A stretch of DNA of 64,000 nucleotides from Candidatus Rokubacteria bacterium CSP1-6 (GTDB taxonomy: Bacteria; Methylomirabilota; Methylomirabilia; Rokubacteriales; CSP1-6). Made by a program: the position numbers and the translations under genes. The notes under the pieces are model-generated. The model was not told the origin of the DNA and searched no databases. It saw nothing but the letters and a program-made list of their open reading frames with translations. The stretch spans positions 2,146-66,145 of the forward strand of contig LDXP01000005.1 in the NCBI GenBank assembly GCA_001443385.1, written 5' to 3'. Positions 14,329 to 34,704 of this stretch are shown piece after piece; the stretch's first letter is position 1, and the number at the start of each line of letters is the position of its first letter.

Positions 14329-14458
14329 GGCACCCGCGCCCCACCGGCGGAAACGGTTGCCCCACCGGCCAGCGCTCGGGTGCCTGGTCAGCAGAACCAC
14401 CGCGTCTCTAACCGCTCACAATCACTGGGGTTTCGGATATCTCGACGGACCGTCCCCC

Positions 14459-14474
14459 TGGCACGACCCTTGCC
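14459..14474 (+). promoter_or_regulatory. Sigma-54 (-24/-12) promoter upstream of feoA
   Basis: cTGGCACGacccTTGCc matches the TGGCACG-N4-TTGC consensus at all invariant positions. It lies 21 nt before the feoA ATG, in an intergenic region. Confidence 0.6.
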
Positions 14475-17327: not shown

Positions 17328-17333
17328 GAGTTC

Positions 17334-19715: not shown

Positions 19716-22186
19716 AGTGCGTCCCTCGCCGTCGTTCGAGCGCCGGCTTCGCCGGCGCAACCCCCGGGGGGAGGCATCGGAAGGGGGGCAAAGCCCCCCT
19801 CCGAGGATCGCTCGGCGTCCAGGACGGTCTGGATCCCCTGCACCAGCGCGTCGGGGTTGAACGAGATGCTCGTGATGCCGCGGCGGACCAGGAAGCGGGT
19901 GAACTCCGGATAGTCGCTGGGCGCCTGGCCGCAGATGCCGATCTTCCGCCCCGCCCGGCGGGCGGCGTCGATCACGGCCCCGACCATCGCGAGGACCGCG
20001 GGGTTCCGCTCGTCGAAGAGGGGCGCCACGAGCTCGGAGTCCCGGTCGAGCCCCAGCACGAGCTGGGTAAGGTCGTTGGAGCCGATGGAAAAGCCGTCGA
20101 AGATTTCCGCGAACTCTCGCGCCAGGATCACGTTGGACGGGACCTCGCACATGACGTACACCTCGAGCCCCCGCTCGCCGCGGACGAGGCCGTGGGCCGC
20201 CAGCAGCTCCAGCACCCGCTGTCCCTCCTCGGGCGTCCGGCAGAACGGGATCATGAGCTTGACGTTGGTGAGCCCCATCGCGTCGCGTACCCGGCGCATG
20301 GCCCGGCACTCGAGGGCGAATCCCTCCCGGTACCGCGGATGGCAGTAGCGGAAGGCCCCGCGGAAGCCGAGCATCGGGTTCTCCTCTTCGGGCTCGAAGT
20401 CCCGCCCCCCGATGAGTCCCGCGTACTCGTTGGACTTGAAGTCGGAGAGCCGCACGATGACGTCCTTCGGGTAGAAGGCCGCGGCGATCATGGCGACCCC
20501 CTCGGCCAGCCGGTCCACGAAGTATAGGGCGCGATCGGCGTAGCCCCGCGTGAGCGCGGCGATCGCGGCCCGCGCCTCGGGATCCTTGACGCCCTCCGGG
20601 TGGAGCAGCGCCAGCGGGTGGACCTTGACCGCGCTCGCGATGATGAACTCGATCCGCGCCAGCCCCACCCCATCGTTGGGCAGGGCCGCCGCGCGCAGCG
20701 CCTCGCCGGGATTCCCCACGTTGAGCATGATGGCGGTGGACGGCTTGGGGAGGGCCGCCAGGTCCACCTGCCGGCGGTCGAACGGAACGACGCCCCGATA
20801 GACGAACCCCGTTTCCCCCTCGCAGCAGGACACCGTCACCGTCTCCCCCTCGGGGATGGCCTGGCTGCCGCGCTCGGTGCCCACCACGCACGGCACGCCG
20901 AGCTCCCGGCTTACTATCGCGGCGTGACACGTTCGGCCCCCCCGGTCGGTGACGATGGCGGCCGCGCGCTTCATGATCGGCTCCCAGTCCGGGTCTGTCA
21001 TCGGGGTGACGAGCACCTCGCCCGGCTGAAACCGATCCAGGAACCTGGGGTCGAGGAGGCGCCGGACCCGCCCGACGCCGATCTTCTGGCCGATCGCCTG
21101 GCCCGCGGCCAGCCGCTCGCGAGGGGTCGTCTCCTGGATCGTGAAAACCTCGAGGACCGACGGTCGCTCCGCACGATGAACCGTCTCGGGACGCGCCTGC
21201 AGGATGTACAGGCGCCCATCCTCGCCGTCCTTCGCCCACTCGATGTCCATGGGCGTCGGCCGGCCGTACTTCGCGGAGTAGTGGACCTCGATCGCGACTC
21301 CATAGCGCGCCAGCTCCAGGGCCTCGTCGTCGGTGAGGCTCAGCCTGGCGCGCTCCTCGGGAGGGACCTCTACCCGCCGCGAGCCGCCGCCGCCGGCCAC
21401 CAGCTTCCAATCCTTCCGGCCGAGGGTCCGCCTGAGAATCGCCTGATACCCCGCCCGGAGAGTCGGCTTGAAGATCCAGAACTCGTCCGGGGTGATCTGC
21501 CCGCTCACGACCGCCTCGCCGAGCCCGTACGCCGAGTTGATGAGCACGACGTCGCGGAAGCCGCTCTCCGGATCCAGCGTGAACATGACCCCCGCCGCGC
21601 CGCGGTCGGCCCTCACCATCTTCTGGACGCCCACCGAAAGGCGGACGGCCATGTGATCGAACCCCTGGTGGATCCGGTAGGCGATGGCCCGGTCGGTGAA
21701 GAGCGAGGCGAAGCAGCGGCGGCAGGCCGCCAGGAGCGCCTGGTCTCCCCGCACGCCGAGGTAGGTCTCGTGCTGGCCGGCGAAGCTCGCCTCGGGGAGA
21801 TCCTCAGCGGTGGCGCTCGACCGGACGGCGACGGCGAGCCCGGCGCCGTACTCCCGGCACAGCGTCCGGTAGGCCGCGATCACATCGTCCTCGAGACCGG
21901 GCGGCGGCGGCGCCTCGACGATGAGCCGCCGGAGGGCCCTCCCCGCCTCGGCCAGCGCCTGGAGATCCTCTCCGGTGACCCCCTTCAGAATGCGCGCCAT
22001 CGCGTCGTGGAGGCCGTTCCCGTCGAGGAGCGCCGTGTACGCCTCCGCCGTGATCGCGAAGCCGTTGGGCACCCGCACCCCGGCCCCCGTCAGCTCGCTG
22101 TAGAGCTCCCCCAGCGAGGCGTTCTTCCCGCCGACCAGCGGCACGTCGGCCAGCCGAATCTCCCGGAACCAGCGGATGTAGTTCAT
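19700..22186 (-). CDS. ppsA: Phosphoenolpyruvate synthase
   Basis: MNYIRWF…VPLVGGKNASLGE, the phosphohistidine region GGRTCHAAIVSRELGVPCVVG, and a PEP-utilising C-terminal domain. SD AGGTGA before the ATG at 22186. Confidence 0.93.
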   Translation of the reverse strand: MNYIRWFREIRLADVPLVGGKNASLGELYSELTGAGVRVPNGFAITAEAYTALLDGNGLHDAMARILKGVTGEDLQALAEAGRALRRLIVEAPPPPGLEDDVIAAYRTLCREYGAGLAVAVRSSATAEDLPEASFAGQHETYLGVRGDQALLAACRRCFASLFTDRAIAYRIHQGFDHMAVRLSVGVQKMVRADRGAAGVMFTLDPESGFRDVVLINSAYGLGEAVVSGQITPDEFWIFKPTLRAGYQAILRRTLGRKDWKLVAGGGGSRRVEVPPEERARLSLTDDEALELARYGVAIEVHYSAKYGRPTPMDIEWAKDGEDGRLYILQARPETVHRAERPSVLEVFTIQETTPRERLAAGQAIGQKIGVGRVRRLLDPRFLDRFQPGEVLVTPMTDPDWEPIMKRAAAIVTDRGGRTCHAAIVSRELGVPCVVGTERGSQAIPEGETVTVSCCEGETGFVYRGVVPFDRRQVDLAALPKPSTAIMLNVGNPGEALRAAALPNDGVGLARIEFIIASAVKVHPLALLHPEGVKDPEARAAIAALTRGYADRALYFVDRLAEGVAMIAAAFYPKDVIVRLSDFKSNEYAGLIGGRDFEPEEENPMLGFRGAFRYCHPRYREGFALECRAMRRVRDAMGLTNVKLMIPFCRTPEEGQRVLELLAAHGLVRGERGLEVYVMCEVPSNVILAREFAEIFDGFSIGSNDLTQLVLGLDRDSELVAPLFDERNPAVLAMVGAVIDAARRAGRKIGICGQAPSDYPEFTRFLVRRGITSISFNPDALVQGIQTVLDAERSSEGGFAPLPMPPPGGCAGEAGARTTARDALWLGD

Positions 22187-22321
22187 ATCTTCACCTGGGG
22201 CGGGCACCCGGGCTGTCGCCACGCCCGCCCCCGCCGGAATCTCGCGATGCTTCAGACCCGGTGCCCGATCTCCGCTCTCGCTGGCGCGCCCCGGCCATCA
22301 CGTTCCCCTAGCTTCTTCCGT

Positions 22322-23368
22322 TTAGTTCCATACGCCTGGGATGGCGGCGTGGCAGACCGGACAGCGGCCGGCCGCCAGGCAGTTGTCGAGGACCCGGAAC
22401 CCCCGGCGCTCCAGGAGCCGCCGGCCGCACTCCGGGCATGCCGTGTTCTCCCACGGGTCGCCGGGGACGTTCCCGGTATAGACGTAGCGGAGCCCCGCCT
22501 TCCGCCCGATCACGGCCGCCCGGTGCAGCGTCTGCGGCGGAGTCGGCGGGACGTCGGTCAGCCGGTAGGTCGGGAAGAACGCGGAGACGTGCCACGGCAT
22601 GTCGCGGTCCACCGAGGCGAGCCATCCCGCGAGGGCCGCCAGCTCCTCGTCCCCGTCGTTCAGGCCGGGGATCACGAGCGTCGTCACCTCGACCCAGATG
22701 CCGAGCTCCCGCATGGCGCGGATGGTCTCGAGCACCGGGGCGAGCGTCGCGCCGCAGACCTTCCGGTAGTAGCGGTCGGAGAAGCTCTTGAGATCCACGT
22801 TGGCGCCGTGGAGGATGGGCGCGACGAGGGCGAGCGCCTCCCGGGTCATGTAGCCGTTTGTGACGAAGAGGTTCCGGATCCCCGCCGCGGCGGCGAGGCG
22901 GCTCGTCTCGAGCGCCAGCTCGAAGAAGATGGTGGGCTCGGTGTAGGTGTACGCGATCGAGCGGCAGCCCGTGGCGCGCGCCGCCGCCACGATCTCCTCC
23001 GGGGCGATCGCGTCCCCCGGAAACGGGCCGGGGCGCTCGCGCGGCCACTGGGAGATGACGTAATTCTGGCAGAAGAGGCAGTGGAAATTGCAACCGACCG
23101 TCGCGATGGAGTAGGCGAGGGTGCCGGGCAGGAAGTGGAAGAACGGCTTCTTCTCGATGGGGTCGACCTCAACGCTGATCACGCGATCCGCGACCAGCGT
23201 GACCAGTGTCCCCTCGAGGTTCTCCCGCACCCCGCAGATCCCGCGGAGCCCCGGACGGATCCGGCAGCGGTGGGCGCAGAGGTTGCACACCACGCTGCCG
23301 TCCGGCCGCCGCTCCCAGAGAAGCGCCTCGAACGCGGTGGCCAGGGGAGCGGTGGCGGTCGGGGGCAC
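22322..23368 (-). CDS. AmmeMemoRadiSam-system-type radical SAM enzyme (PflA-like activase family)
   Basis: N-terminal CNLCAHRCRIRPGLRGICGVRE, radical SAM cluster GCNFHCLFCQN, and a C-terminal CPECG…CPVCH. Confidence 0.8.
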   Translation of the reverse strand: MPPTATAPLATAFEALLWERRPDGSVVCNLCAHRCRIRPGLRGICGVRENLEGTLVTLVADRVISVEVDPIEKKPFFHFLPGTLAYSIATVGCNFHCLFCQNYVISQWPRERPGPFPGDAIAPEEIVAAARATGCRSIAYTYTEPTIFFELALETSRLAAAAGIRNLFVTNGYMTREALALVAPILHGANVDLKSFSDRYYRKVCGATLAPVLETIRAMRELGIWVEVTTLVIPGLNDGDEELAALAGWLASVDRDMPWHVSAFFPTYRLTDVPPTPPQTLHRAAVIGRKAGLRYVYTGNVPGDPWENTACPECGRRLLERRGFRVLDNCLAAGRCPVCHAAIPGVWN

Positions 23369-23389
23369 CGGTCGGTCTCCTCGGGGGGG

Positions 23390-24520
23390 TCAGAGCGGAT
23401 AGCGCAGGAGCGCCGCCACGCCGCCCACGCGCGCCAGCGCCTGATGGATCTCGACTGTCTCCACCTTGCCGCCCGCGGCGATGACCCGATCCACGATCGC
23501 CCCCCCCAGCTCCGCCGCCTCGGTGGGCTTGCCGCACAGGCGGCAGCTGGCGGCGTCGCCGCTCTGGAGCGCCCCGCACTCGACGCAGAGACGGCCGGGC
23601 TGACTGAACCTCCCCAGCAGGTAGAGGCGCTGCACCGCGCCGCGGGCGACGGCCTCGAGCGTCTCTTCGAGCCCCGCGACGGCCCGCCCCCCTTTCGCCG
23701 CCTCGGTGAGGACCGCCTCCACCGCGTCCGCCCCTTCTCCGCCCCGGAGGTGCGCCAGAAACTCGGCGGCGCGCCCGACCAGGACCGCCGCCGACTCGTG
23801 GCGCGCGCCGGCGATGCTGCCGACAACCCGCTCGGCGATTCGGTTGGGCAGCCGCTTCTGGAAGACCGCGATCGTCCTCGGCTCCCCCGCCATGAGGATT
23901 CGCCGCACCCCGTTCCCCTCGGTCAGGCCGATGAGCGCCTCCACCACCGCCTCGAAGTGGCGCCCCCGATGATCCTGGATGTGGCGCTGGTAGCGGGACT
24001 GGGCCAGCTGCGCCCAGCCGCCCCGGCGGTGATGGCCGGGAACCTCACTCTCCAGGGCCACCTCCTCCCCCACGCCCTCGGTCGTCAACGGCACGAGGCG
24101 GGCGCTCTCGCCGTCGACGAAGACCACCAGCGCCGACGGGGTCTTCTCCAGCAACGCCGCCAGGGGGGAGAGGTGCGGCGCGTCGGCCACGACGAAGGCG
24201 CTCTCGAACGGAACCCGGACCGGGATGATGTCCCGAAGGCCCAGCGCCCGACAGGCGAAGAGCGCGACGCCGTGGGCCTCGGGGAACCGCGACTGCGTGA
24301 TGAGCGCGTCGCCTTCGGCCTGGATCCAGTCCAGGTCGGCCTCCATCCCCTCAGCGGTTGAGGCCTTGCGCGCCTTTCGGATCTCGTTCTTGAGGAAGAC
24401 CCGGACCCGGTCGCGCTGATGCTCGTCCCCCCAGCGGGTGTTCAGGTACACGCTCACCACGGGGGTCTCGCGCGTCCCCCGCAGCTTGGCCAGCTCTGTC
24501 AACCGCGCGCTGACGTCCAT
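23390..24520 (-). CDS. Bacterial eRF1/Pelota-like (aeRF1-superfamily) protein with a C-terminal zinc ribbon; GGQ not conserved
   Basis: Three-domain eRF1-like layout. The loop 'HHRRGGWAQLAQSRYQRH' sits where aRF1 has 'GRGGQSAxRFxR'. CVECG…CRLCG ribbon and an eRF1 domain-3-like end '…VAALLRYPL'. Confidence 0.65.
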   Translation of the reverse strand: MDVSARLTELAKLRGTRETPVVSVYLNTRWGDEHQRDRVRVFLKNEIRKARKASTAEGMEADLDWIQAEGDALITQSRFPEAHGVALFACRALGLRDIIPVRVPFESAFVVADAPHLSPLAALLEKTPSALVVFVDGESARLVPLTTEGVGEEVALESEVPGHHRRGGWAQLAQSRYQRHIQDHRGRHFEAVVEALIGLTEGNGVRRILMAGEPRTIAVFQKRLPNRIAERVVGSIAGARHESAAVLVGRAAEFLAHLRGGEGADAVEAVLTEAAKGGRAVAGLEETLEAVARGAVQRLYLLGRFSQPGRLCVECGALQSGDAASCRLCGKPTEAAELGGAIVDRVIAAGGKVETVEIHQALARVGGVAALLRYPL

Positions 24521-24527
24521 GGCTCCC

Positions 24528-24725
24528 TCAGGCGAAGAACGCCTCGATCTCTGCCCGGAGCTTGGTCTCGGCCTCGAAGGGATCCGAGGCCTTGACCTCG
24601 AAGAGCATCCCCTTTTCGTGGCTGAAGCCTTCCATCACCACGCCGACGGCAACCCAGCCGAACGGCTCCACCTTTTCGAGCTCGATGTCCACAAGCCGCC
24701 CCCTGATCCGATCCATCGTCAGCAT
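24528..24725 (-). CDS. Small hypothetical protein (65 aa)
   Basis: GC3-rich codon usage. The stop lies 7 nt before the next start in a tightly packed string. No recognisable family. Confidence 0.5.
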   Translation of the reverse strand: MLTMDRIRGRLVDIELEKVEPFGWVAVGVVMEGFSHEKGMLFEVKASDPFEAETKLRAEIEAFFA

Positions 24726-24734
24726 CGCTGTCTC

Positions 24735-24899
24735 CTAACTTTTCCTCGCGGTTCGCGCGACGAACGTCTGCATGACCGCCTCGACGTCCTCGCTCCCGCA
24801 ACCGGAACACTGGATCTTGGCCGTCGCGCGCTCGCTGATCCGCAGCAGCAGGGTGAAGACCTTCTTGCACTTCCGGCACTCGAACTCGTACTGCGGCAT
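24735..24899 (-). CDS. FmdB-family zinc-ribbon protein
   Basis: MPQYEFECRKCKKVF…CSGCGS, the classic FmdB/CxxC-x-CxxC N-terminus. The longer track ORF extension is Arg/Gly-rich and not credible. Confidence 0.8.
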   Translation of the reverse strand: MPQYEFECRKCKKVFTLLLRISERATAKIQCSGCGSEDVEAVMQTFVARTARKS

Positions 24900-24913
24900 T
24901 TGGGGGGGGCCCC

Positions 24914-25363
24914 TCAGACGGATCCCCAGAGGCCGGGGTGATACAGCACGACCGGCAGCCGGGACTTCCGGAAGACCTGCTCGGCCACGCTCCCGAGCAC
25001 CGTGCGGCCGACCCCGCTCCGTCCCGCCGTCGCCACCGCGATGACGTCGGCGCCGAAGGCCTCGGACTCCAGGAGGATCTCCTGCACCGGGTCCCCGAAC
25101 CTCACGACGCACTCCACCGGGATCCCTTCGAGCTGGACCTCGACGGCCCGCAGGTAATCCATCCCCTCCGCCTCCAGGCGCTCCATCTCCTGGTCCAGAT
25201 AGGCGATGACCTGCCCCGTCTCGCTCACGAGGGCCTGCGGCAGCGGGGCCACGTGGAGCAGGCGCACGGTCGCCCCCGCCCCGCGGGCGGCATCCGCCAC
25301 CACCGGCACGATCGACTCCGCCAGCGGTGAGACATCCAGCGGCACCAGAATTCGCTTCGCCAT
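24914..25363 (-). CDS. Universal stress protein (UspA family)
   Basis: ILVPLDVSPLAE … GADVIAVATAGRSGVGRTVLGSVAEQV. Confidence 0.88.
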   Translation of the reverse strand: MAKRILVPLDVSPLAESIVPVVADAARGAGATVRLLHVAPLPQALVSETGQVIAYLDQEMERLEAEGMDYLRAVEVQLEGIPVECVVRFGDPVQEILLESEAFGADVIAVATAGRSGVGRTVLGSVAEQVFRKSRLPVVLYHPGLWGSV

Positions 25364-25366
25364 GGT

Positions 25367-26482
25367 CTATCCCTCCCCTGCTGCCGCGCCCGGCGACGCG
25401 CCACCGAAGCTCTGCTCGACAGCCTCTAGATCGAACGGCCCCAGATCCCCCATGGAGGCGGCGAAGTTGAGGAGCGCGATCCGCACGCCCTCGGGGATGC
25501 GCGGGTACCAGCGCGGATGGGCGATCACGAGCGCCCGGCCGGCGTAGAACGGCGGGAGCACCTCGAACAGCTCATGATCGCCGCTCCGAGCGCGGTACCC
25601 CTCGAGGAACCGGTGGAAGAACCCTTTGAAGGGCTCCGCCAGGCCCGGCCCCTTCAGGAGGCCGAAGAACAGGTAGTTGATGCTGAGGGCGGCCACGTCG
25701 TCGGCCGGCTCCCCCCACTCGCCCCGGCTCCGGTCCAGCACCGAGAAATCGGTCCCCTCGCGGAAGAGGAGGTTCCACGGATGGAAGTCCCCGTGGACCC
25801 GCGCCAGCCGGTGGGTGAACCCGCGCAGCCGCCAGCGCCACTCGACCGCTGCATGCTCCAGGGCCGCGCACGCCTCGGGCGGCAACAGCGGGTATGGATG
25901 CGGGTAGCTGTCGAGGATCCCCATGAGGCACTCGCCGTGCCCGACGAGCTCGCGGACCCGCCGCTGGTAGAGCCAGGGCGCCCGCTTCTTCTCCGCGTGG
26001 ATCTCGGCCAGGTAGCCCGCCAGGGCGTCCACCCGCCCGAGGTCCAGCGAACGCGCCTCTTCGGTGAGGAGGCGATCCAGATCGAGCCAGTACGGCGTTC
26101 CCTCGGCCTTCTCGACGAGCTGGAAGAATTCCGCCGAGTCGCCGGCCGAGACCAGCTCGCCGCCCGCGCGCACGAACCCGACGTCCAAGCTCCTGACGTG
26201 GCGCGGCAGCGCGTTGAATGCGGCGTGCCCCCACAGCGCGGCCCAGGCGCGGTCCGCCGGGTACTCGTGGCCGAAGCCCTCCTCGGGCCGGGTCCGGGCC
26301 AGGACGAACTGCCGGGGCTCGCCCCCGATGAGGCACTCCACCTCGAGCGGCACCCCGTAGCCGAAGGCCTTGGGATTGGCCCCCTCGCCGAGATTGTCCT
26401 TGAGGGGCCGCACGCCCAGCAGCTCGACCGGCCGCCGGAAGACCCGGGCAAGGTACGCCTGCAGCTCCCTCGACTCGATCAT
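25367..26482 (-). CDS. Phosphotransferase/kinase-fold protein (APH/choline-kinase-like)
   Basis: Catalytic-loop-like 'RVHGDFHPWNLLF' followed by 'VLDRSRGEWGEPADDVA'. Confidence 0.65.
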   Translation of the reverse strand: MIESRELQAYLARVFRRPVELLGVRPLKDNLGEGANPKAFGYGVPLEVECLIGGEPRQFVLARTRPEEGFGHEYPADRAWAALWGHAAFNALPRHVRSLDVGFVRAGGELVSAGDSAEFFQLVEKAEGTPYWLDLDRLLTEEARSLDLGRVDALAGYLAEIHAEKKRAPWLYQRRVRELVGHGECLMGILDSYPHPYPLLPPEACAALEHAAVEWRWRLRGFTHRLARVHGDFHPWNLLFREGTDFSVLDRSRGEWGEPADDVAALSINYLFFGLLKGPGLAEPFKGFFHRFLEGYRARSGDHELFEVLPPFYAGRALVIAHPRWYPRIPEGVRIALLNFAASMGDLGPFDLEAVEQSFGGASPGAAAGEG

Positions 26483-26492
26483 GCGTCCCGCC

Positions 26493-26939
26493 TTATTTCC
26501 CGCGGACCGTGAGCACCGGGCACGGGGCCAGCGCGATCACCCGCTCGGCCACGCTGCCGAGGAAGAATTTGGACAGGCCGCTACGCCCGTGAGTCCCCAT
26601 CACGATCAGGTCGGCGCGCTTGGAGCGGGCGACCCGCGCGATCCGGTCGTAGGGCACGCCCTCCAGCAGCACCGCCTTGACCCGCGCCTTGGCCTTCTGG
26701 GCCTTGGCCACCACCTTGGCCAGCTCCCGCTGCGCGCCCCGGCGAGCCGAAGCCTCCAGCTCCTCGTAGGTTTTGGGGGAGATGTATCCGTCCCCGATGA
26801 ACGGCGTCGTCGGGAGCAGCACGTGGACCAGCAGGAGCTCGGCCCGGCTCTCCTTGGCCAGGGCCACGGCCTTCAGGAACGCCGCGCCCGAGGCGCGGGA
26901 GAAATCGGTGGGATGAAGAATCCGACGAACCCCCTTCAT
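26493..26939 (-). CDS. Universal stress protein (UspA family)
   Basis: ILHPTDFSRAS … ADLIVMGTHGRSGLSKFFLGSVAERV. Confidence 0.88.
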   Translation of the reverse strand: MKGVRRILHPTDFSRASGAAFLKAVALAKESRAELLLVHVLLPTTPFIGDGYISPKTYEELEASARRGAQRELAKVVAKAQKAKARVKAVLLEGVPYDRIARVARSKRADLIVMGTHGRSGLSKFFLGSVAERVIALAPCPVLTVRGK

Positions 26940-26960
26940 ACCCGGACTCCTTTCATGGGC

Positions 26961-27311
26961 TTACTCTGACACCAGCCGCTTCGCGGCGAAGTACTTCTTG
27001 GGGTAGCGGGCCCGCTCCAGGCGCCGCTCCCGGTACTCCGCCAGCTCCCGCTTCAGGCCGCCGAAGCTCCGGTCGAAGGCGAGCCACGCGTTCTCGGCCA
27101 CGTCTTCCACCCGGATCGCGGGCCGCCGCGGGATGCGGACGGTCAGCGCGCAGCGCAGGGCCCGGCCTCCCTTGGGACCGTTGTCGTCGATGAAGGTCAC
27201 CACGGCCGTGACCGGGCTCGCCTGGATCCGCCCGAGTTCCCGGTTGAGCCGCCTCTCGATCCGGGCGCCGAGCGCCGGCGCCAGCGACACGCCGCGAAGT
27301 TCGATTTTCAT
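26961..27311 (-). CDS. HPF/RaiA-family ribosome-associated (hibernation-type) protein, short form
   Basis: MKIELRGVSL … AVVTFIDDNGPKGGRALRCALTVRIPRRPAIRVEDVAENAWLAFDRSF matches the HPF/RaiA-like pattern. Start at the internal Met of track ORF 26961..27407. Confidence 0.65.
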   Translation of the reverse strand: MKIELRGVSLAPALGARIERRLNRELGRIQASPVTAVVTFIDDNGPKGGRALRCALTVRIPRRPAIRVEDVAENAWLAFDRSFGGLKRELAEYRERRLERARYPKKYFAAKRLVSE

Positions 27312-27321
27312 GGAGGCGCCC

Positions 27322-28143
27322 TCAATCCAGGAGGCGGACCTGCCCCGCCACGACCTGCCGGGCCCGTCCCTTCGCTTCTTCCACAAGGAGGTGGCCCTCG
27401 GCGTCAACGCCCAGGGCCCTGCCCTGGAAGACGCTCCCTTCCTCCCGCACCTCCACCCGCCGCCCGGTCAGGATGTCACGATCGCGCCAGGCCTCAAGCA
27501 GGGCCTCCGCGTGCCGGTCCCGATAGACGTAGAACCACTCGTCGAGGGACATGAGGAAGCTGGCCGTGAAGGCGTTCCGGTCGATGTTCCGCCCCGCCAG
27601 CTCCCGGAGCGAGGCGGCCGCGCGGCCGGCGTCCCCCAGCGCCTCCACGAGGGCGGCGCGCTCGACGTTGAGATTCACCCCCACCCCGAGGATCACGTAG
27701 TCCAGCCGATCCCCGGTGGTGGCCAGCGAGGCGAACACCCCAGCCACCTTCTTCCGGTTCACCAGGATGTCGTTGGGCCACTTGATGGCCGCCGGGACTC
27801 CGACCGACCGGACGGCATCGGCCACCGCCAGGCCGGCGATGAAGGAGAAGACCGGCGCGTCCTTCGGACCGATGGCGGGCCGGAAGAGGACCGAGGCGTA
27901 GAGGTTCACGCCGAACGGCGAGAACCAGCCCTTGCCGAGCCGGCCCCGACCGGCGCTCTGGCTCTCGGCCAGCACGGTCGTTCCCTCCCGCGCCCCGGCC
28001 TTGGCCAGGTGGCGGAGGGCGTCGTTGGTGGACGACACCTCGCCGAACAGGTAGATCTGGCGCGCCACGGTCTTGGCCGAGAGCTGCCGGCGGATCAACT
28101 CGATGCTGAGCGCATCCTGCAGGATCGAAACTTCAGGAGACAC
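27322..28143 (-). CDS. birA: Biotin-[acetyl-CoA-carboxylase] ligase (no N-terminal HTH)
   Basis: 'STNDALRHLAKAGAREGTTVLAESQSAGRGRLGKGWFSP' and 'KWPNDILV' are BirA catalytic motifs. Confidence 0.88.
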   Translation of the reverse strand: MSPEVSILQDALSIELIRRQLSAKTVARQIYLFGEVSSTNDALRHLAKAGAREGTTVLAESQSAGRGRLGKGWFSPFGVNLYASVLFRPAIGPKDAPVFSFIAGLAVADAVRSVGVPAAIKWPNDILVNRKKVAGVFASLATTGDRLDYVILGVGVNLNVERAALVEALGDAGRAAASLRELAGRNIDRNAFTASFLMSLDEWFYVYRDRHAEALLEAWRDRDILTGRRVEVREEGSVFQGRALGVDAEGHLLVEEAKGRARQVVAGQVRLLD

Positions 28144-29044
28144 GGCGGGCCTCCTCTCTGTGGCTCTGCGGGCCGACCGTCAGGACGGGGCAGGGAGCCG
28201 TTCGAATGACGCGGTGAGCGATGGAACCGAGCGTCCACCGGATGAGCCCCGACCAGCCGTGGGTGCCCATCACGATCAGGCCCGCCCCCGACGCGACCGC
28301 CTGGTTGACGATCTGTTCCTCGGCGACTCCGTGGGCGAGCACCGTCTGGACCTGGGGGCTGGGAATCCGGCTCTTCGCCAGCAGATCCTTCACCGACTGC
28401 TCGGCGCGCCGGCGGTAGCCGGCTTCCAGCTTCGCCCGCTCCGACGGCGAGACCCGGGGATCCTCCGGAACCTCCGGCATCACGTGGAGGAGGATGAGCT
28501 GCGCCCCGCGGGCGATTGCCAGCTCCTCCGCCACCGGCCACGCCTCCTGCGCCGTCGGGGAGAAGTCCGTGGGATAGATCAGCGTGGCCAGGGGCGCTCT
28601 GCGGGCCCACAGCGGGCCCACGGTCACGACGGAGCACGGCGCCCGGCGCAGGACCTCGTCGGCGACGCTCCCAAGGAACATCTGCTTGAACCCGGTGCGT
28701 CCGACGGTCCCCACGACGACCAACCCCGCCTGCTCCTCGGCGGCGGCCAGCAGGATCTGCTCGGCGGCGCGGCCCTTGTCCACGCGGGAGCGCACCTTCA
28801 GGGTCTCGAGCTCCGCCTGGGCCACCAGCTTGGAGATCTCGGCTTCCGCTTCGTCCCGGGCCGTTTCCCAGTAGCGCGTGAAGACGTCCGCCGAGAAGAA
28901 CCCCTCCGGCGGCGCCGTGAGCGGCGGCACGACGTGGAGGATGACCAGCTCGGCGCGGCACACCCTCGCGAGCTCCGTCGCGCACGGCCAGGCCGCGAGC
29001 GAGGCTGCCGAGAAATCCGTGGCGTACAGGATCCGCGCGATCAT
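28133..29044 (-). CDS. Tandem universal stress protein (two Usp domains)
   Basis: Two repeats, each ending in …GT(V/H)G(R/W)(T/S)G…LGS(V/I)A…. Confidence 0.88.
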   Translation of the reverse strand: MIARILYATDFSAASLAAWPCATELARVCRAELVILHVVPPLTAPPEGFFSADVFTRYWETARDEAEAEISKLVAQAELETLKVRSRVDKGRAAEQILLAAAEEQAGLVVVGTVGRTGFKQMFLGSVADEVLRRAPCSVVTVGPLWARRAPLATLIYPTDFSPTAQEAWPVAEELAIARGAQLILLHVMPEVPEDPRVSPSERAKLEAGYRRRAEQSVKDLLAKSRIPSPQVQTVLAHGVAEEQIVNQAVASGAGLIVMGTHGWSGLIRWTLGSIAHRVIRTAPCPVLTVGPQSHREEARRVS

Positions 29045-29499
29045 GCGGCGCTCTCGAGGGCGGCCTCCGAGGTGCGCAGGAGAAACACCGGGATCGGCGA
29101 GCTACGCAGGACCGCCTCGGCCACGGAGCCGAACAGGAGCCGCCCGAGGCCGCTGCGCCCGTGGGTGGTCATGGCGATCAGGTCGGCGTTGATCTCCTTC
29201 GCCGCCGCGACGATCTCCGTCGCAGGGTCGCCGATCCTCACCCGGGCGCCCGCGCGCACTGCCTTCGCCTTGAGCGACGCCACCAGCGGCTCGAGGTAGC
29301 CCTGGGCGTCCAGCTCCTTGAGGATCGGCTCCCCCCGCTGCGCCTCTTTGGCCATCGCCGCCACGTCCATAGAGGTCAGCGGCACCACGCGGACCAGCAG
29401 GACCTCCATGTCCAGCGGACCGGCGATCTGCTCGATGAAGGGGAGAATCGCCTCCGCCACCCGCGAGCCGTCCAGGGGAACGAGGACACGCTGATACAC
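29041..29499 (-). CDS. Universal stress protein (UspA family)
   Basis: VLVPLDGSRVAE … ADLIAMTTHGRSGLGRLLFGSVAEAV. 4-nt overlap with the next gene. Confidence 0.88.
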   Translation of the reverse strand: MYQRVLVPLDGSRVAEAILPFIEQIAGPLDMEVLLVRVVPLTSMDVAAMAKEAQRGEPILKELDAQGYLEPLVASLKAKAVRAGARVRIGDPATEIVAAAKEINADLIAMTTHGRSGLGRLLFGSVAEAVLRSSPIPVFLLRTSEAALESAA

Positions 29500-29502
29500 G
29501 GC

Positions 29503-30000
29503 CTACACCCTCCCGGCCACAGGGCCCTGCCAGGGCCTGGCCTCGCCCTTTTCCACCGGCGCCTGGACCGGCGCCTCGGCCGCGCGGATCAGGAGGATCG
29601 GCGTCGTGGTTCCGCGCAGCACCGATTCGGCCACGCTCCCCACGATGAGGCGCCCCAGCCCGCTCCGGCCGTGGGTCGTCATCGCGATGAGGTCCACCTT
29701 GTTGAGGCGCGCGGCCTCCACGATCGCGTACGCCGCCGGGCCGTACCAGACGGACGTCTCCACGTCCTTCAGCCCCAGGGCCGCGAGACGGTCGCCGACC
29801 TGGGCGAGGTAGTCCTCGGCCTCCTGCACCACCTTGATCTGGGCCTCGGTGGGATCGACACCGGGAAGCGTGTGGGCCTCGGCAGCGCGGATCAACAGCA
29901 GCTTTGCCCCGGAGCTCTCGGCCATCTCGACTGCCTTCGGCAGCGCGGCTTCCGCGAGCGCCGAGCCGTCAAGTGGAACCAGAATTTTCTGGAGTTTCAT
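29503..30000 (-). CDS. Universal stress protein (UspA family), first gene of the string
   Basis: MKLQKILVPLDGSALAE … VDLIAMTTHGRSGLGRLIVGSVAESV. AAGGAGAG SD before the ATG at 30000. Confidence 0.88.
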   Translation of the reverse strand: MKLQKILVPLDGSALAEAALPKAVEMAESSGAKLLLIRAAEAHTLPGVDPTEAQIKVVQEAEDYLAQVGDRLAALGLKDVETSVWYGPAAYAIVEAARLNKVDLIAMTTHGRSGLGRLIVGSVAESVLRGTTTPILLIRAAEAPVQAPVEKGEARPWQGPVAGRV

Positions 30001-30046
30001 GGATCTCTCCTTTCGCTGGCGGTCGGTTCCGCCCATCCAGGCAAAC

Positions 30047-30062
30047 TGCAACGGAGGTGCCA
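30047..30062 (-). promoter_or_regulatory. Sigma-54 (-24/-12) promoter upstream of the Usp-led gene string
   Basis: The minus strand reads TGGCACctccgTTGCA, matching TGGCAC-N5-TTGC(A/T) at all invariant positions. It lies 47-62 nt upstream of the ATG at 30000 and immediately downstream of a sigma-54 activator gene. Confidence 0.7.
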
Positions 30063-30180
30063 TGGGGAGGGAGAAGGAGAAGGATTGAAAATCGAGGAGT
30101 TACTGCTGAGACGGGGCGCGGGCAGCGGGCACCATCTGAGGCGCGGTCACCCCAGGTGGGGCAGGCTCCTCGGGGACGGC

Positions 30181-31593
30181 CTAGCCTGCTTCGGCCGGGC
30201 CGGCCTCGCGGATCCCGTACTTATTGATTAGGCGGTGGAAGGTCTTCCGGTCGATCCCGGCCGCCTTGGCGGCCTGCGAGACGTTGCCGTCGTGGCGGCG
30301 GAGCAGCTCGGTGAGGTACGTCGCCTCGAGCTGGATCATCCACTGGGCCTTGGCTTCTTTGAGGGGGAGGTTCTTGCCGGCCAGGGAAGGGATCTGCGCG
30401 CCGCCGACGGCCGCGGGCGGAACGCTCAGGTGCGCGGGCAGATCGCGGGCGCTGATGGTCTCCCCCTCGGCGAGGACGCAGGCCCGCTCGATGACGTTCT
30501 GGAGCTCCCGGACGTTGCCGGGCCAGGCGTAGTGTTCCAGAATCTGGATCGCCTCGGGTTCGAACCCCCTGAGGGGAACCTCCCGCCCCTGGCCGTACTT
30601 TTTCAAGAATGTGTGGGCCAGGAGCGTCACGTCCCCCTTGCGTTCCTGGAGGGGCGGCAGCGAGATCGGGATCACGTTGATGCGGTAGTAGAGCTCCTCG
30701 CGGAACTGCCCTTTCACCACCTGGTCGCGCAGATCGCGGTTCGTCGCCGACACCAGGCGCACGTCCACATCGATCTGCCGCGTGCCCCCCACCCGGCGGA
30801 TCTGCCGCTCCTGGAGCGCGCGGAGGAGTTTCACCTGGAGCCCCACCGGGAGCTCCCCGATCTCGTCGAGGAACAGCGTGCCGCGGTGGGCCACCTCGAT
30901 GAGGCCCGGCTTGGTCCTCACCGCCCCCGTGAACGCGCCCTTCTCGTGACCAAAGAGTTCCGACTCCAGGAGCTGCTCCGGCAGCGACGCGCAGTCCACG
31001 GGGACGAACGCCTCCGTCGCCCGCGTGCTGCTCAAGTGGATGGCGTTCGCCACCAGCTCCTTGCCGGTCCCCGATTCCCCGATGATCAGGATGTTCGCCT
31101 CGGACCGGGCCGCCTTCCGCACCAGCTCGAAGACCTGAGCCATGGCCGGGCTCCGGCCGATGATGTTCTCGAAGCCGTAGGTCCCGCGCAGCTGCTCGCG
31201 GAGCCGGAGGTTCTCCACGGCCAGGCGGCGCTGGGCGAGGGCCCGGTCCACGGCCAGCTTGAGCTGGTCCGCGCTGAACGGCTTGGGCAGATAGTCGAAG
31301 GCGCCTTCCTTCACCGCCTCCACGGCCGACTCGATGGTGGCGAAGCCGGTCACGATGATGACCGGCACCTGGGAATCCACCTCGCGCGCGCGGCGGAGCA
31401 GGGTGAGGCCGTCCATGCCGGGCATCTTGAGGTCGGTCAGGAGGACGTCGGGGCGCTCGGACTCCATGAGGGCCAGCGCCTTGCGGGGCTCTCCCGCGGT
31501 CAGGCACTCATAGCCGGCCTTGCCGAGGATGCGGCTCACGTTCTCGAGCATGTCGGGCTCGTCGTCCACGATGAGGAGGCGGCCGCGGGTCAT
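30181..31593 (-). CDS. Sigma-54-dependent response regulator (NtrC family: REC + AAA+ + Fis-type HTH)
   Basis: LLIVDDEPD…DLKMPGMDG; GESGTGKELVANAIH; GAFTGA-type loop (EKGAFTGA); C-terminal HTH …NVSQAAKAAGIDRKTFHRLINKYGI. Confidence 0.93.
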   Translation of the reverse strand: MTRGRLLIVDDEPDMLENVSRILGKAGYECLTAGEPRKALALMESERPDVLLTDLKMPGMDGLTLLRRAREVDSQVPVIIVTGFATIESAVEAVKEGAFDYLPKPFSADQLKLAVDRALAQRRLAVENLRLREQLRGTYGFENIIGRSPAMAQVFELVRKAARSEANILIIGESGTGKELVANAIHLSSTRATEAFVPVDCASLPEQLLESELFGHEKGAFTGAVRTKPGLIEVAHRGTLFLDEIGELPVGLQVKLLRALQERQIRRVGGTRQIDVDVRLVSATNRDLRDQVVKGQFREELYYRINVIPISLPPLQERKGDVTLLAHTFLKKYGQGREVPLRGFEPEAIQILEHYAWPGNVRELQNVIERACVLAEGETISARDLPAHLSVPPAAVGGAQIPSLAGKNLPLKEAKAQWMIQLEATYLTELLRRHDGNVSQAAKAAGIDRKTFHRLINKYGIREAGPAEAG

Positions 31594-31645
31594 ATCTCGG
31601 AGGGGGGCTCCGCCCCCCTTCCGACACCTCCCCCCAGACTGGATT

Positions 31646-31664
31646 GCGCTGGCAAAGCCAGCGC
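31646..31664. other. Perfect hairpin GCGCTGGC-AAA-GCCAGCGC between the kinase and regulator genes
   Basis: Read directly: an 8-bp stem and a 3-nt loop. A second G/C palindrome (GGGGGGCTCCGCCCCCC) lies about 40 nt away. Confidence 0.4.
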
Positions 31665-31702
31665 TCGAACGGGCGCGCGACAGTTTAGTGACGGCGGGTG
31701 TC

Positions 31703-33349
31703 TCATGCGTGGTCTTCCGTCGCGACGACCGGAAACGTGAGCGTGAAGGTGGTCCCCTTCCCGGGCTGGGACTGGACGTCGATCGTGCCCTGGAGCTCGC
31801 GGACGATCCCGTAGCTCACGGACAGCCCGAGCCCCGTCCCCTGCGCCTTCGTCGTGTAGAACGGATCGAAGATCCTCGGCAGCCGGTCGAGCGGGATCCC
31901 CGGGCCGTTGTCGGCCACGACGAGGCGCAGCCAGCCCGGCCGGCCGGCGACGGTGCCGGTCTCGATCCGGATCTCGCCCCCGTCCCTCATCGCGTCCCGG
32001 GCATTGGTCAGGAGGTTCAGGACGACCTGCTGGAGCGCGTTGGGATCCCCCTGCATCGGGGGCAGATCCCGCGCCAGCGACCGCCGCACCGTGATCCCCT
32101 CCTTGCTCACCTGTTTCTCCAGGAGGAGCATGGTGTCCTCGACGACGCGATTCAGGTCCAGGAGGCCGCGGTCCCCCGGGGACTGGCGCGCGAAGGACAG
32201 GAGCCCCCGGGCGATCCGCGACACGCGCTGCGAGTGGCGGTGAAGGACCTCCAGGTCCTGCCGGACCTGGGGCGGCAGCCCCAGCTCCTCGGCCTCCTGG
32301 AGCATCAGATCAATCCGGGAGGAGATGATGCCGACGGGATTGTTCAGCTCGTGGGCGAGCCCCGCGGAGAGCGTGCCGAGGGCGGCGAGTTTCTCCGCCT
32401 GGCGGGCGGAGCGCTCCAGCCCCACCTTTTCGGTGGTGTCCTCGAGGAGGAGCACGGCGCCGGTGGGCGCCAGGTTCTCCCTGAGGAGGCTTCCCTTCAC
32501 GTCCAGGATGACCCGGCCCTTCTTGAGAGTCTCGTGCTCCAGCCCCTCAACCGCGAATTCCTCGATCTCCCCCCGGAGGAGCCGCTCGATCGGCTCCGCC
32601 AGCCCCTCGCGCTTCCAGGTCGGATTGATGTCCAGGAACGGCCTGCCGAGCACCTCCTGGGCCTTGACCTCATACCGCTCTTCCATCGCGCGGTTCCAGG
32701 CCCGCACCCGCCCGTCCGCGTCGAGCACGACGAGGCCGTCCCGGAGGCTCTCCACGACGTTCGTGATGAAGCGCTCGCGCGCCTCGATCTCCCGGTTCAG
32801 GGCCGCGACCGCCAGGCGCTCGCGCTCCTCGATGTCGGCGAGCACGCCGACGCCCACGGCCGTCCCGATCAGCACGGCGATCCGGATGGCGGCGTTCGCC
32901 CACTCGTGGTGGACGAGCGTCGGCCAGATGACCCAGACGTAGGCGACGGAGGCCCCGACGGCCACCGCCACGCCGCGCCGGATCCCGTAGTAGTAGGACT
33001 GGAGCCCGGCGATCAGGAGCAGGGCGAGGAAGAGGGTGCTCTCGGCCCCGCCCGAGAGGCGGATCAGGAGGAGCGCGAAGGCCAGGTCGAGCAGCAGGAC
33101 CGGGAGCTGGAGGCGGAAGACCAGTCCGGGGCGGAGCCAGATGAGCAGGTAGAGGACGAGGCTGTAGCAAGTGAACGCCGCCAGCGCGAAGGCCAGGAGG
33201 ATCCAGCCCACGAAGTCCGTGGGGGTGAGCGCCAGCCAGACGAAGCCCGCGATGACGGCGAGCCCTCTGAGGAATGGCAGCGCCAGGAACCGCGGGCCGC
33301 CGATCCTTCGGGAGAGCTGCCGAAGCCAGTTGATCTCGCTCATCGTCAA
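31703..33349 (-). CDS. Membrane sensor histidine kinase (multi-TM N-terminus, PAS, HisKA, HATPase)
   Basis: H-box LSAGLAHELNNP, N-box NLLTNARDAM, G-boxes DNGPGI and GTGLGLSVS. Confidence 0.9.
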   Translation of the reverse strand: MTMSEINWLRQLSRRIGGPRFLALPFLRGLAVIAGFVWLALTPTDFVGWILLAFALAAFTCYSLVLYLLIWLRPGLVFRLQLPVLLLDLAFALLLIRLSGGAESTLFLALLLIAGLQSYYYGIRRGVAVAVGASVAYVWVIWPTLVHHEWANAAIRIAVLIGTAVGVGVLADIEERERLAVAALNREIEARERFITNVVESLRDGLVVLDADGRVRAWNRAMEERYEVKAQEVLGRPFLDINPTWKREGLAEPIERLLRGEIEEFAVEGLEHETLKKGRVILDVKGSLLRENLAPTGAVLLLEDTTEKVGLERSARQAEKLAALGTLSAGLAHELNNPVGIISSRIDLMLQEAEELGLPPQVRQDLEVLHRHSQRVSRIARGLLSFARQSPGDRGLLDLNRVVEDTMLLLEKQVSKEGITVRRSLARDLPPMQGDPNALQQVVLNLLTNARDAMRDGGEIRIETGTVAGRPGWLRLVVADNGPGIPLDRLPRIFDPFYTTKAQGTGLGLSVSYGIVRELQGTIDVQSQPGKGTTFTLTFPVVATEDHA

Positions 33350-33391: not shown

Positions 33392-34704
33392 TTACGGACG
33401 CAGGAGCAAGAAGAGAAGCAGCGCGAGCGCGGCGGACGCGCCCCCGAGCCAGAAGGGCGCGGCGGGGCCGGCCGCGTCCCAGAGCCAGCCCGCCAGCAGG
33501 CTCGCGGGGAGCGCCAGCGCGCCCACGACCGCGTGGTAGATGCCGAACGCCCGGCCGCGGTCCGCCGCCGGCACCAGGTCGGCGACGAACGCGCGCTGGA
33601 TCCGCTCCGTGAGCGCGTAGTAGATCCCGTAGAGCGCGAAAAGCGGCCACGCCTCCCATGCCCGGTCCGCCCGCGCAAATCCGAGGTAGACGAGGGCGAA
33701 GACTGCGTACCCGAGAGGAATCACGCGCCGCCGCCCGAACGCGTCGGAGAGGACGCCCACCGGAAAGGACACGGCCGCGTACACGACGTTGAACGTGAGG
33801 TAGAGGAGCGGGATCGATCCCTCGCCGATCCCCAGGTGGCGGGAGCGGAGGATCAGGAACGCGTCGGAGGAGTTGCCGATCCCGAAGCAGACGAGGATCG
33901 GCACGAAGCGCCAGAATCTCCCGCCGAGCTCGCCGGGCGGCGCCCCCCTCACCTTCATCCCCTCCCAACTCATAACCCCCTCTCCTTCATCCTCTCCCCC
34001 CGAGGGGGAGAGGGCAGGGTGAGGGGGAGAGGAGAAGAGGTGAGGGGCATCGAGTAGGGCAGGGTGAGGGGGGCCTCTGGCCTCACCGGGATCTCCCGCA
34101 CGCCGACGAGAAGGACGACGATCCCGATCAACGCGGGGACGAACGACAGGAGGAAGAGCGCGCGGAAATCCCCGCCGAAGGCCGGCAGGAGCACCCAGGC
34201 CAGGAGCGGTCCCACCACGGCGCCGGCGGTGTCCATGCTCCCGTGAAGGCCGAAGGCCCGCCCGCGGATGGGCCCGGGCGCCGCGTCGGCCAGCAGCGCA
34301 TCGCGCGGCGGCGTGCGCAGCCCCTTGCCGAAGCGATCCAGGAACCGGATGCCGAGGACGTGCCCCCACGTGCCGGCCAGAGCGAGGAGCGGCTTGGCCG
34401 CCGCCGCGCACGCGTAGCCGGCGACGACGAACGGCTTTCGCCGTCCCATCCGGTCCGAGAGCCAACCCGCCGCCAGGCGCAGGCCGCTCGACGTGGCCTC
34501 GGCGGTCCCCTCGATGAGCCCCACCGCCTTCATCGGCGCCCCGAGCGTGCGCGTCAGGAAGAGCGGGAGCAGCGGGTAGATCATCTCCGACGCCACGTCG
34601 GAGCAGAAGCTGACCCAGCCTAAGGCCCAGACGGTCCGGGGAAGGGGGGAGCCGCTGCTACCGGCCGAAGCGCCGCTGCCGGTGCTGGTAGCTCCGAATG
34701 GCAC
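33392..34704 (-). pseudogene. MFS transporter split in its central loop by a 131-bp palindromic element
   Basis: The N-terminal half is in ORF 33970..34704 (…LVGVREIPVRPEAP then repeat-encoded LTLPYSMPLTSS…*). The C-terminal half is in a different frame (ORF 33392..34465, …APPGELGGRFWRFVPILVCFGIGNSSDAFL…). Confidence 0.7.
33943..34073. mobile_element. MITE/REP-like palindromic element, copy 2, inserted inside the MFS gene
   Basis: TIRs CCCCCCTCACC…GGTGAGGGGGG and the same core as copy 1. Removing exactly 33943-34073 (131 bp) joins …PVRPEA|PPGELGGRFW… in frame. Confidence 0.8.

Follow-up and report, generated by a model that had tools for sequence, protein, structure and literature searches.

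Background

Burroughs and Aravind (2019, PMC6514570) defined the baeRF-1 clade, described its persistent operonic link with HPF, and predicted that baeRF-1 proteins insert into the ribosomal A site and shut translation down. They singled out family 10 for a conserved Gln and saw in it a possible peptidyl hydrolase. Helena-Bueno et al. (Nature 2024, PMC10901736) later proved that Balon, Msmeg1130 and Rv2629 act in hibernation, and they place Balon genes in stress-response operons, with raiA as the commonest neighbour. A 2025 preprint reports that non-canonical HPF genes frequently adjoin Balon. Here we analyse a 64,000-nt stretch from Candidatus Rokubacteria bacterium CSP1-6 (contig LDXP01000005.1), called the window throughout, in which a string of twelve genes (G1 to G12, numbered from the promoter) combines an HPF/RaiA-like gene (G5) and a Balon-type gene (G11) with five genes for universal stress proteins (Usp). 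Rokubacteria are abundant uncultured bacteria of soil and groundwater, and to our knowledge almost nothing is known about their persistence.

Our analysis indicates that in this member of the Rokubacteria (Methylomirabilota) the string is probably a stress or dormancy operon under sigma-54, which a two-component system of its own switches on, which is fused from two sigma-54 modules, and in which G5 and G11 silence ribosomes.

Results

A sigma-54 promoter and a conserved palindrome precede twelve packed genes

The string consists of 12 minus-strand open reading frames (ORFs) downstream of a sigma-54 promoter. Every gap is 21 nt or less and two junctions overlap; from G1 to G12 the distances are 3, -4, -11, 10, 21, 10, 3, 14, 9, 7 and 21 nt, negative values denoting overlap. 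No Usp, HPF-like or baeRF gene of the window lies outside this cluster. The window has a G+C content of 69.5%, and gene starts were picked by ribosome-binding sites. A preliminary description of this DNA had named the promoter, the tight packing of the twelve genes, their family assignments, and an NtrC-type activator with a membrane histidine kinase immediately upstream (30181-33349). We reproduced all of these, the family assignments by Pfam and NCBIfam and the two regulators by their domains and a GAFTGA motif. One correction concerns G1, whose longer ORF, to 30063, would overlap the promoter: we place its start at the ATG at 30000, which has a GGAG ribosome-binding site and lies 47 nt downstream of the promoter motif.

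The promoter, TGGCACctccgTTGCA (30047-30062, minus strand), is an exact -24/-12 motif of the form TGGCAC-N5-TTGCW, with a predicted transcription start (+1) near 30036. It is the only exact match in the 64 kb, where 0.01 are expected from shuffled sequences. Permitting one mismatch adds a sole further site, at 14459 on the plus strand, and the coding strand within the gene string has no sigma-54 site at up to two mismatches (GG/GC fixed). The 118-nt spacer from the activator gene to the promoter holds a candidate enhancer (upstream activating sequence), the palindrome TGAGGCGCGGTCACCCCA at 30137-30154, in the interval 30100-30300 where enhancer sites had been anticipated. It reads TGGGGT-N6-GCCTCA on the gene strand, is centred about 83 nt upstream of TGGCAC, and is conserved in related genomes. 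A generic inverted-repeat search of the promoter region missed this palindrome; only the alignment of upstream regions from related loci found it, with the consensus TGRGG-N8-CCYCA, typically TGGGGC-N6-GCCCCA.

These related loci number 60, mostly from Rokubacteria, and were drawn from one-genome-per-species assemblies and mapped by tblastn and hidden Markov models of the window proteins. In many of them the genes form two modules, a Usp module (M1) and an HPF module (M2), each with its own sigma-54 promoter. Exact palindromes occur 54 times in 878 kb, 38 of them no more than 300 nt upstream of a sigma-54 motif. With at most one mismatch, the palindrome accompanies 14 of 16 M1 promoters and 13 of 14 M2 promoters (27/30), against a background of 3.6% of random 150-nt windows. 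Its centre lies 62, 72, 82 or 92 nt upstream of TGGCAC in M1 and M2 promoters; steps of about 10 nt place the palindrome always on the same side of the helix, as expected for an activator-bound enhancer. In 14 loci a sigma-54 motif (up to one mismatch) stands 40-100 nt upstream of the gene-1 homologue. Of 26 loci, 13 have such a motif no more than 200 nt from the HPF-like gene, where 0.013 are expected per 200-nt window. The common palindrome argues that M1 and M2, even if separate, would form one regulon or regulons of closely related activators. Sigma-54 motifs and activator paralogues are numerous in the related loci, which makes an rpoN gene in this genome likely.

Both putative regulators of the promoter are encoded on the minus strand. 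The NtrC-type sigma-54 activator (bacterial enhancer-binding protein, 30181-31593) has a receiver domain, an AAA+ Sigma54_activat domain (239 bits), a Fis-type helix-turn-helix (HTH_8) and GAFTGA at residue 219; its NCBIfam match is AtoC/NtrC-like and lies under the equivalog cut-offs. The sensor histidine kinase (31703-33349) has about five N-terminal hydrophobic segments followed by PAS, HisKA (H-box HELNNP) and HATPase_c domains, as judged by Pfam, motifs and hydropathy.

The same pair of elements occurs elsewhere. A second palindrome in the window, TGAGGCACCCGCGCCCCA (14326-14343, plus strand), lies 124 nt upstream of the one-mismatch sigma-54 motif TGGCACGACCCTTGCC (14459-14474, plus strand), and the pair directly precedes feoA (PF04023) and a 670-aa ORF that reads as feoB (14495-16810). 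Ferrous iron uptake may be part of this sigma-54 regulon or of a sister one. In locus L002, two gene-1-like Usp genes stand in tandem (at 244 and 979), each with a palindrome and a sigma-54 motif of its own, so the promoter-gene unit has been duplicated there.

Two older modules are probably fused in the window

M1 is made up of the kinase, the activator, Usp, (Usp), (BirA), Usp and the APH-fold kinase; M2 of the HPF-like protein, (Usp), (zinc ribbon) and baeRF. L012, L014 and L017 have the two modules on one strand at a distance from each other, L018, L021, L037 and L045 have them on opposite strands, and L047 has a compact version consisting of promoter, Usp, HPF, Usp and baeRF. Among the 44 loci with at least 1.6 kb of sequence upstream of baeRF, 26 have an HPF-like gene upstream of it on the same strand and 23 a Usp gene within 3 kb. 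Other adjacencies recur as well: kinase, activator and Usp module stand together in L001, L004, L018 and L037; BirA lies within M1 in at least 13 loci (L001-L004, L007, L018, L021, L024, L034, L037, L045, L049, L060); a homologue of the G8 Usp lies between HPF-like gene and baeRF in many loci; and a zinc ribbon directly precedes baeRF in L004, L005, L007, L009 and L018.

The complete twelve-gene order is found in the nearest relatives only, in L001 and L004 (89-93% identity) and nearly so in L002 (73%). These are independent assemblies, so the fused arrangement is no assembly artefact. The search for synteny of eRF1-like, HPF-like and Usp genes that had been suggested finds an HPF-like and baeRF (plus Usp) core to be conserved, with the full order confined to the closest relatives. 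Judged by gene order, the window operon is a putative interleaved fusion, [Usp Usp Usp2 BirA][HPF][Usp APH][Usp ZnR 65aa baeRF][rSAM], of two older sigma-54 modules with a common enhancer motif. M2's own sigma-54 promoter and palindrome are lost in the window, where just 10 nt separate birA from the HPF-like gene. The 65-aa gene (G10) and the radical SAM gene after baeRF (G12) occupy these positions only in L002 and L004; together with the tandem Usp gene they are lineage-specific additions.

Family-10 genes also occur in a second arrangement (L025, L029, L030, L046, L052), with a histidine kinase upstream and an activator downstream on the opposite strand. In these loci a palindrome and sigma-54 pair lies 300-690 nt before baeRF, and no HPF-like gene was detected.

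G11 is a distant relative of Balon and G5 an HPF-family protein

G11 (23390-24520, minus strand), a three-domain protein of the archaeo-eukaryotic release factor 1 (aeRF1) superfamily, scores 86.2 bits on Pfam PF18854 (baeRF_family10), against a gathering threshold of 27.1 and above every other baeRF family. Msmeg1130, the "Balon" of M. smegmatis, scores 125 bits on the same model, which puts G11 in one Pfam family with a factor of solved A-site binding. In a search of the PDB with a profile of 18 G11 homologues, Msmeg1130 came first (E 1.6e-15, full length), and eRF1 and Pelota appeared at 1e-4 to 1e-6. The AlphaFold2 model of G11 has three domains (predicted local distance difference test, pLDDT, 78), and its top Foldseek match is ribosome-bound Msmeg1130 (8v9l_z, E 2.9e-21), followed by eRF1/aRF1, Rv2629 and P. 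urativorans Balon. On the NCBIfam models NF052288, NF052289 and NF052287, G11 matches over the full length with 74.7, 74.5 and 47.6 bits. These scores are far under the hibernation-factor cut-offs of 480, 320 and 330, so G11 is a distant member and not an orthologue.

The motifs of G11 are its own, as compared with the Balon features given in PMC10901736. It has neither GGQ nor NIKS: the GGQ of eRF1 aligns to an invariant GGW (167-169), and an invariant Gln174 follows five residues beyond. The surrounding loop, G-x-H-x-x-GGW-(x3)-AQ-x-RYQRH, is retained in homologues down to about 30% identity, and residues 161-174 are predicted to be disordered in the AlphaFold2 model. A four-cysteine zinc ribbon (C312, C315, C326 and C329; CxxC-N10-CxxC), likewise invariant down to 30% identity, sits where Balon has its EF-Tu-binding beta-hairpin, and no such hairpin was recognised in G11. 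Nor was an HP motif recognised in the N-domain, which has its own conserved motif, S-x-YL-x-TRW-x-DE-x-QR.

Nearly all G11 homologues come from metagenome assemblies of Candidatus Rokubacteria/Methylomirabilota (soil, sediment and groundwater). Two cultured strains, Anaeromyxobacter oryzae Red232 (L053) and A. oryzisoli SG63 (L057), have distant family-10 homologues of about 31% identity. These keep the zinc-ribbon cysteines and the TRW-DE-QR motif; their loop is divergent and has no GGW. They offer a possible experimental entry point.

G5 (26961-27311, minus strand) is a short HPF/RaiA-family protein of 116 aa. Its match to PF02482 (Ribosomal_S30AE/HPF) is weak, at 30.4 bits, and above the cut-off of 23.7. 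HPF of this family went by the old name "sigma-54 modulation protein". The best PDB sequence match of G5 is T. thermophilus HPF, and its AlphaFold2 model (pLDDT 83.6; predicted template-modelling score, pTM, 0.71) has a beta-alpha-beta3-alpha fold. The top 33 Foldseek matches of the model are all HPF, RaiA or pY, with template-modelling (TM) scores up to 0.84, and it superposes on 8rd8_D, the RaiA co-bound with Balon, with a TM score of 0.82 and a root-mean-square deviation of 2.1 Å. In the alignment, a DDNGPKGGRALRCAL loop and a PKKYFAAKR tail mark the G5 subfamily.

RNA contigs cover the string and end near the predicted start

Expression was assessed with assembled RNA contigs, 90-99% identical, from sediment and groundwater metatranscriptomes, which sample related populations; a search for runs from this very strain found none. 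The contigs are unstranded and possibly include DNA, so we take them as supportive only. Mapped to 19.5-33.5 kb, they span all twelve genes and bridge 10 of the 11 gene junctions, including that of G12 and G11; the exception is the BirA/HPF joint. Run X25 covers G1-G3 at a depth of about 100 and the activator gene at 9-25. In two runs, contigs of at least 93% identity have their edge at 30025/30026, some 10 nt downstream of the predicted +1, and there is no depth over 30053-30300; these edges are contig ends, not mapped 5' ends. The single transcription unit proposed earlier is supported in part, by contigs across ten junctions and by a 5' edge at the promoter, and stays unbridged at one.

Some contig joints skip 1.6-3.3 kb from one Usp gene to another; the best reading is that Usp paralogues were cross-assembled, and these joints were not used.

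Scans of the string for intrinsic terminators and sigma-70 promoters gave nothing above shuffled background, and no terminator candidate is convincing. Sigma-54 sites are likewise absent from its coding strand at up to two mismatches. Beyond it, the 99-nt spacer from G12 to the PEP synthase gene is unstructured and folds worse than shuffles, and no 3' end is definable there. The RNA contig depth of PEP synthase is far above that of G12, which suggests that PEP synthase has its own promoter.

Other genes of the string and its flanks

Besides G3, the Usp genes each encode a single PF00582 domain: G1 (29503-30000, 165 aa, 101 bits), G2 (29041-29499, 152 aa, 108 bits), G6 (26493-26939, 148 aa, 124 bits, with an ATP-binding-type motif) and G8 (24914-25363, 149 aa, 89 bits), all on the minus strand like the rest of the string. 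G3 (28133-29044, 303 aa) is a tandem Usp, matching PF00582 in two stretches (198 bits) with G-x2-G-x9-GS in both domains. Of the resulting six Usp domains in five genes, three (G3a, G3b and G6) have the strict G-x2-G-x9-G-[ST] motif; in G1, G2 and G8 the first Gly of the ATP-binding motif is substituted.

G4 (27322-28143, 273 aa) is a class I biotin protein ligase, a BirA without helix-turn-helix (TIGR00121, 178 bits; also by Pfam), whose translation has intact GRGR and KWPNDI motifs. G7 (25367-26482, 371 aa) is a phosphotransferase of the APH/eukaryotic-like-kinase fold (PF01636, 28 bits) with an intact catalytic loop (HGDFHPWN, VLDR). Its matches in the PDB and NCBIfam are YihE/SrkA-like only and marginal, so no substrate can be proposed. 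G9 (24735-24899, 54 aa) is an FmdB-family CxxC..CxxC zinc ribbon (PF09723, 44 bits; TIGR02605, 46 bits), and G10 (24528-24725, 65 aa) matches no family in Pfam, NCBIfam or PADLOC. G12 (22322-23368, 348 aa) is a radical SAM enzyme of the AmmeMemoRadiSam type, scoring 336 bits on TIGR04337 (cut-off 220), with CNFHCLFC as its CxxxCxxC motif. AMMECR1-like and Memo-like partners are not among the twelve genes or the annotated flanks, the rest of the window not having been Pfam-scanned. By their motifs, BirA, the APH-fold kinase and the radical SAM enzyme look catalytically competent.

Downstream of the string, three further minus-strand genes occupy 16827-22222: PEP synthase/PPDK (19700-22222), an AAA+ protease resembling LonC/LonB (about 17334-19760) and a LigD 3'-phosphoesterase domain on its own (16827-17327). 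PEP synthase is also found near baeRF10 in L002, L004, L025, L029, L030 and L046. Just upstream of the histidine kinase, a major facilitator superfamily transporter (33392-34704, minus strand) is split over two overlapping frames, with the N-terminal half in 33970-34704 and the C-terminal half within 33392-34465; the frameshift means either a pseudogene or an assembly error. An Rfam scan of 13-36 kb gave zero RNA families.

Discussion

Proposed mechanism

We propose the following course of events, in which the physiological signal and every binding event are what we infer. The membrane PAS histidine kinase would sense a signal and phosphorylate the NtrC-type activator. Judging from conservation and helical phasing, the activator would bind at 30137-30154, to the palindrome some 110 nt ahead of the start site, and remodel the sigma-54 holoenzyme so that the promoter at 30062-30047 opens. 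One mRNA starting near 30036 would then carry the twelve genes, as the bridging contigs in part bear out. By homology and fold, G5 would occupy the decoding and tRNA sites of the 30S subunit, and G11 would bind the ribosomal A site, probably with EF-Tu, in the manner of Balon and Msmeg1130 and with no peptide release. Jointly the two would silence and protect ribosomes. Five nucleotide-binding Usp proteins would be co-produced as the general part of the programme, and the BirA-type ligase, the APH-fold kinase, the zinc ribbon, the 65-aa protein and the radical SAM enzyme would be made alongside them.

The signal-dependent stress or dormancy programme suggested in the preliminary description, joining Usp, ribosome hibernation and an archaeo-eukaryotic-type factor, is supported by the promoter, the palindrome, the conservation of the HPF-like and baeRF core, and RNA expression. 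Its reading of G11 as a translation-arrest/rescue-type factor is not the best one, G11 being without GGQ or NIKS and in the Pfam family of the hibernation factor Msmeg1130. That no operon of this composition had been described is true only in part; mainly the regulation and the fusion appear to be new. As a claim about an unknown operon type it went too far, since a published hibernation pair forms the core: the HPF/baeRF-1 pairing dates from 2019 (PMC6514570) and Balon/RaiA from 2024 (PMC10901736), and the DosR regulon already unites many Usp, HPF-family and Balon proteins (PMC5309233).

Several observations count against the proposal. The RNA evidence consists of contigs of related populations and not of this strain's reads, and DNA carry-over is possible. 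Sediment contigs from two runs break at 27311, the start codon of the HPF-like gene, and at 27324, at the birA stop, and continue into unlike sequence, which has no match among the 60 loci. From so exact a break it follows that the expressed relatives have another neighbour at the point of module fusion, and co-transcription across the BirA/HPF joint is only presumed in this lineage. Internal sigma-70-type promoters may exist, since the scan for them is weak at 69% GC. The protein evidence has gaps too: G5 scores 23.9 bits on TIGR00741, under the cut-off of 40.9, and G11 is well short of the NCBIfam hibernation-factor cut-offs. G11 also retains what Balon no longer has (an RGG in the GGQ loop, the Gln downstream of it and the zinc ribbon), and its mode of action may differ from that of Balon. 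No rpoN was seen in the 64 kb of genome available. Finally, the model names no signal for the kinase and gives BirA, the APH-fold kinase and the radical SAM enzyme no role; we know of no reason for a biotin ligase in a stress operon.

Alternative explanations

Part of this evidence would also fit a string of two or more transcription units, in which sigma-54 serves the first four genes only and internal sigma-70-type promoters, for example one inside birA, drive the HPF-like gene onward. M1 and M2 are separate operons with their own promoters in many relatives, the RNA contigs break exactly where the modules meet, contig depth is uneven along the string, and a housekeeping BirA would presumably need sigma-54-independent expression. 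We nevertheless consider such a split conceivable and not likely. The sigma-54 promoter and palindrome of the HPF module have been lost here with no replacement site at two or fewer mismatches, and the birA/HPF gap measures 10 nt; no gap exceeds 21 nt, two junctions overlap, and no terminator-like site inside the string rises over background. The fused order moreover recurs in the independent assemblies L001, L004 and L002, and ten of the eleven junctions are bridged by RNA contigs. A different kind of doubt concerns the action of G11, which could be an active alternative release or rescue factor that frees stalled nascent chains during cell shutdown, leaving the HPF-like protein to lock the empty ribosomes. 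Such an activity would accord with the conserved Gln for which family 10 was marked as a possible peptidyl hydrolase (PMC6514570), with the GGW...Q loop conserved to 30% identity and its invariant Gln174, and with the retention of the ancestral zinc ribbon and complete three-domain architecture; in fold, eRF1/aRF1 are nearly as close as Balon (E 1e-17 vs 1e-21). It is hard to reconcile with an invariant Trp in place of the Gln of GGQ itself and with the lack of a NIKS-type stop-codon motif. Among relatives characterised by experiment, the nearest, which shares its Pfam family, is a hibernation factor without catalytic activity, and the conserved partner gene is HPF, as with Balon. We regard a release or rescue role as unlikely.

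We consider it very improbable that the cluster is just a generic set of stress genes, or a defence island against phage, and does not act specifically on ribosomes. In favour of such a reading, Usp are general stress proteins, PMC6514570 considers baeRF-1 in connection with biological conflicts, and a faint viperin-like match (E 4.5e-4) exists for the radical SAM enzyme. Yet eight of the nine proteins run through PADLOC have no family there, and the lone match is a generic radical SAM similarity; the defence reading was rejected on this result. Two conserved core genes are of ribosome-binding families whose close structural matches have solved ribosome complexes, and the HPF-baeRF pairing is conserved across lineages. 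A hibernation operon under sigma-54 control thus stays our preferred explanation. One extension of it is distinctly speculative, and we would not expect it to hold: the rokubacterial family-10 proteins could be a "proto-Balon" between archaeal aRF1 and Balon, whose zinc ribbon and GGW...Q loop serve an activity that Balon has lost. They would be deployed by a phylum-wide sigma-54 dormancy regulon (with the TGGGGC-N6-GCCCCA enhancer), and on dormancy entry its BirA, kinase and radical SAM members would also alter metabolism or the machinery of translation. If so, the activity might consist in hydrolysing peptidyl-tRNA or cleaving tRNA on stalled ribosomes, or in A-site binding gated by metal or redox state.

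Significance

Our results suggest that Rokubacteria put HPF, a Balon-type factor and a Usp battery under a dedicated two-component sigma-54 switch, and the recognisable enhancer motif offers a testable definition of a dormancy regulon for the phylum. A Balon relative with ancestral aeRF1 features is also useful for tracing how a release factor became a hibernation factor. What appears new here is the conserved sigma-54/enhancer control, the two-module architecture fused in this lineage, and a Balon relative with a zinc ribbon and a GGW...Q loop. The central HPF-baeRF pairing is already known, having been predicted earlier and partly proven, and nothing is overturned. Full-text searches found no precedent for Balon-type hibernation under sigma-54 control; those combining Rokubacteria with sigma-54 returned nothing, and those combining sigma-54, Usp and ribosome hibernation nothing relevant.

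Comparison with known systems

The Balon-RaiA pair of Psychrobacter urativorans and mycobacteria resembles this locus in having a three-domain aeRF1-like protein without GGQ or NIKS, encoded beside an HPF/RaiA gene in a stress operon, as described in PMC10901736. G11 shares only about 20% identity with Balon proteins. Unlike them, it keeps RGG-W and an invariant Gln in the former GGQ loop, and it has a zinc ribbon at the site of Balon's EF-Tu-binding beta-hairpin. The neighbours named in the searched parts of PMC10901736 do not include Usp, BirA, an APH-fold kinase, an FmdB zinc ribbon or a radical SAM enzyme, and sigma-54 or NtrC-type control is not mentioned there. The baeRF-1 proteins of PMC6514570 form the same protein clade as G11, and Pfam uses the family numbering introduced with them; the main text of that paper has no Usp, kinase, radical SAM enzyme or sigma-54 promoter and defines no regulon or enhancer. 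Sigma-54 and HPF also meet in the rpoN-hpf arrangement of Proteobacteria (bioRxiv 10.1101/2025.11.04.686544). There hpf merely adjoins rpoN, whereas here the HPF-like gene itself stands behind a sigma-54 promoter.

In M. tuberculosis, the DosR (DevR) regulon places Usp such as Rv2623, the HPF-family protein Rv0079/RafH and the Balon Rv2629 under two-component control (DosS/DosT-DosR), according to PMC5309233 and PMC10901736. Its regulator is of the NarL/LuxR type and acts on sigma-70-type promoters, whereas here an NtrC-type activator would act with sigma-54; its genes are scattered in nine blocks in another phylum, whereas here they form one putative operon. The logic is the same, leading from a signal to Usp and two ribosome-silencing factors. 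By this analogy, and with a likeness that is functional only, the DosR regulon is the closest functional analogue of the operon proposed here.

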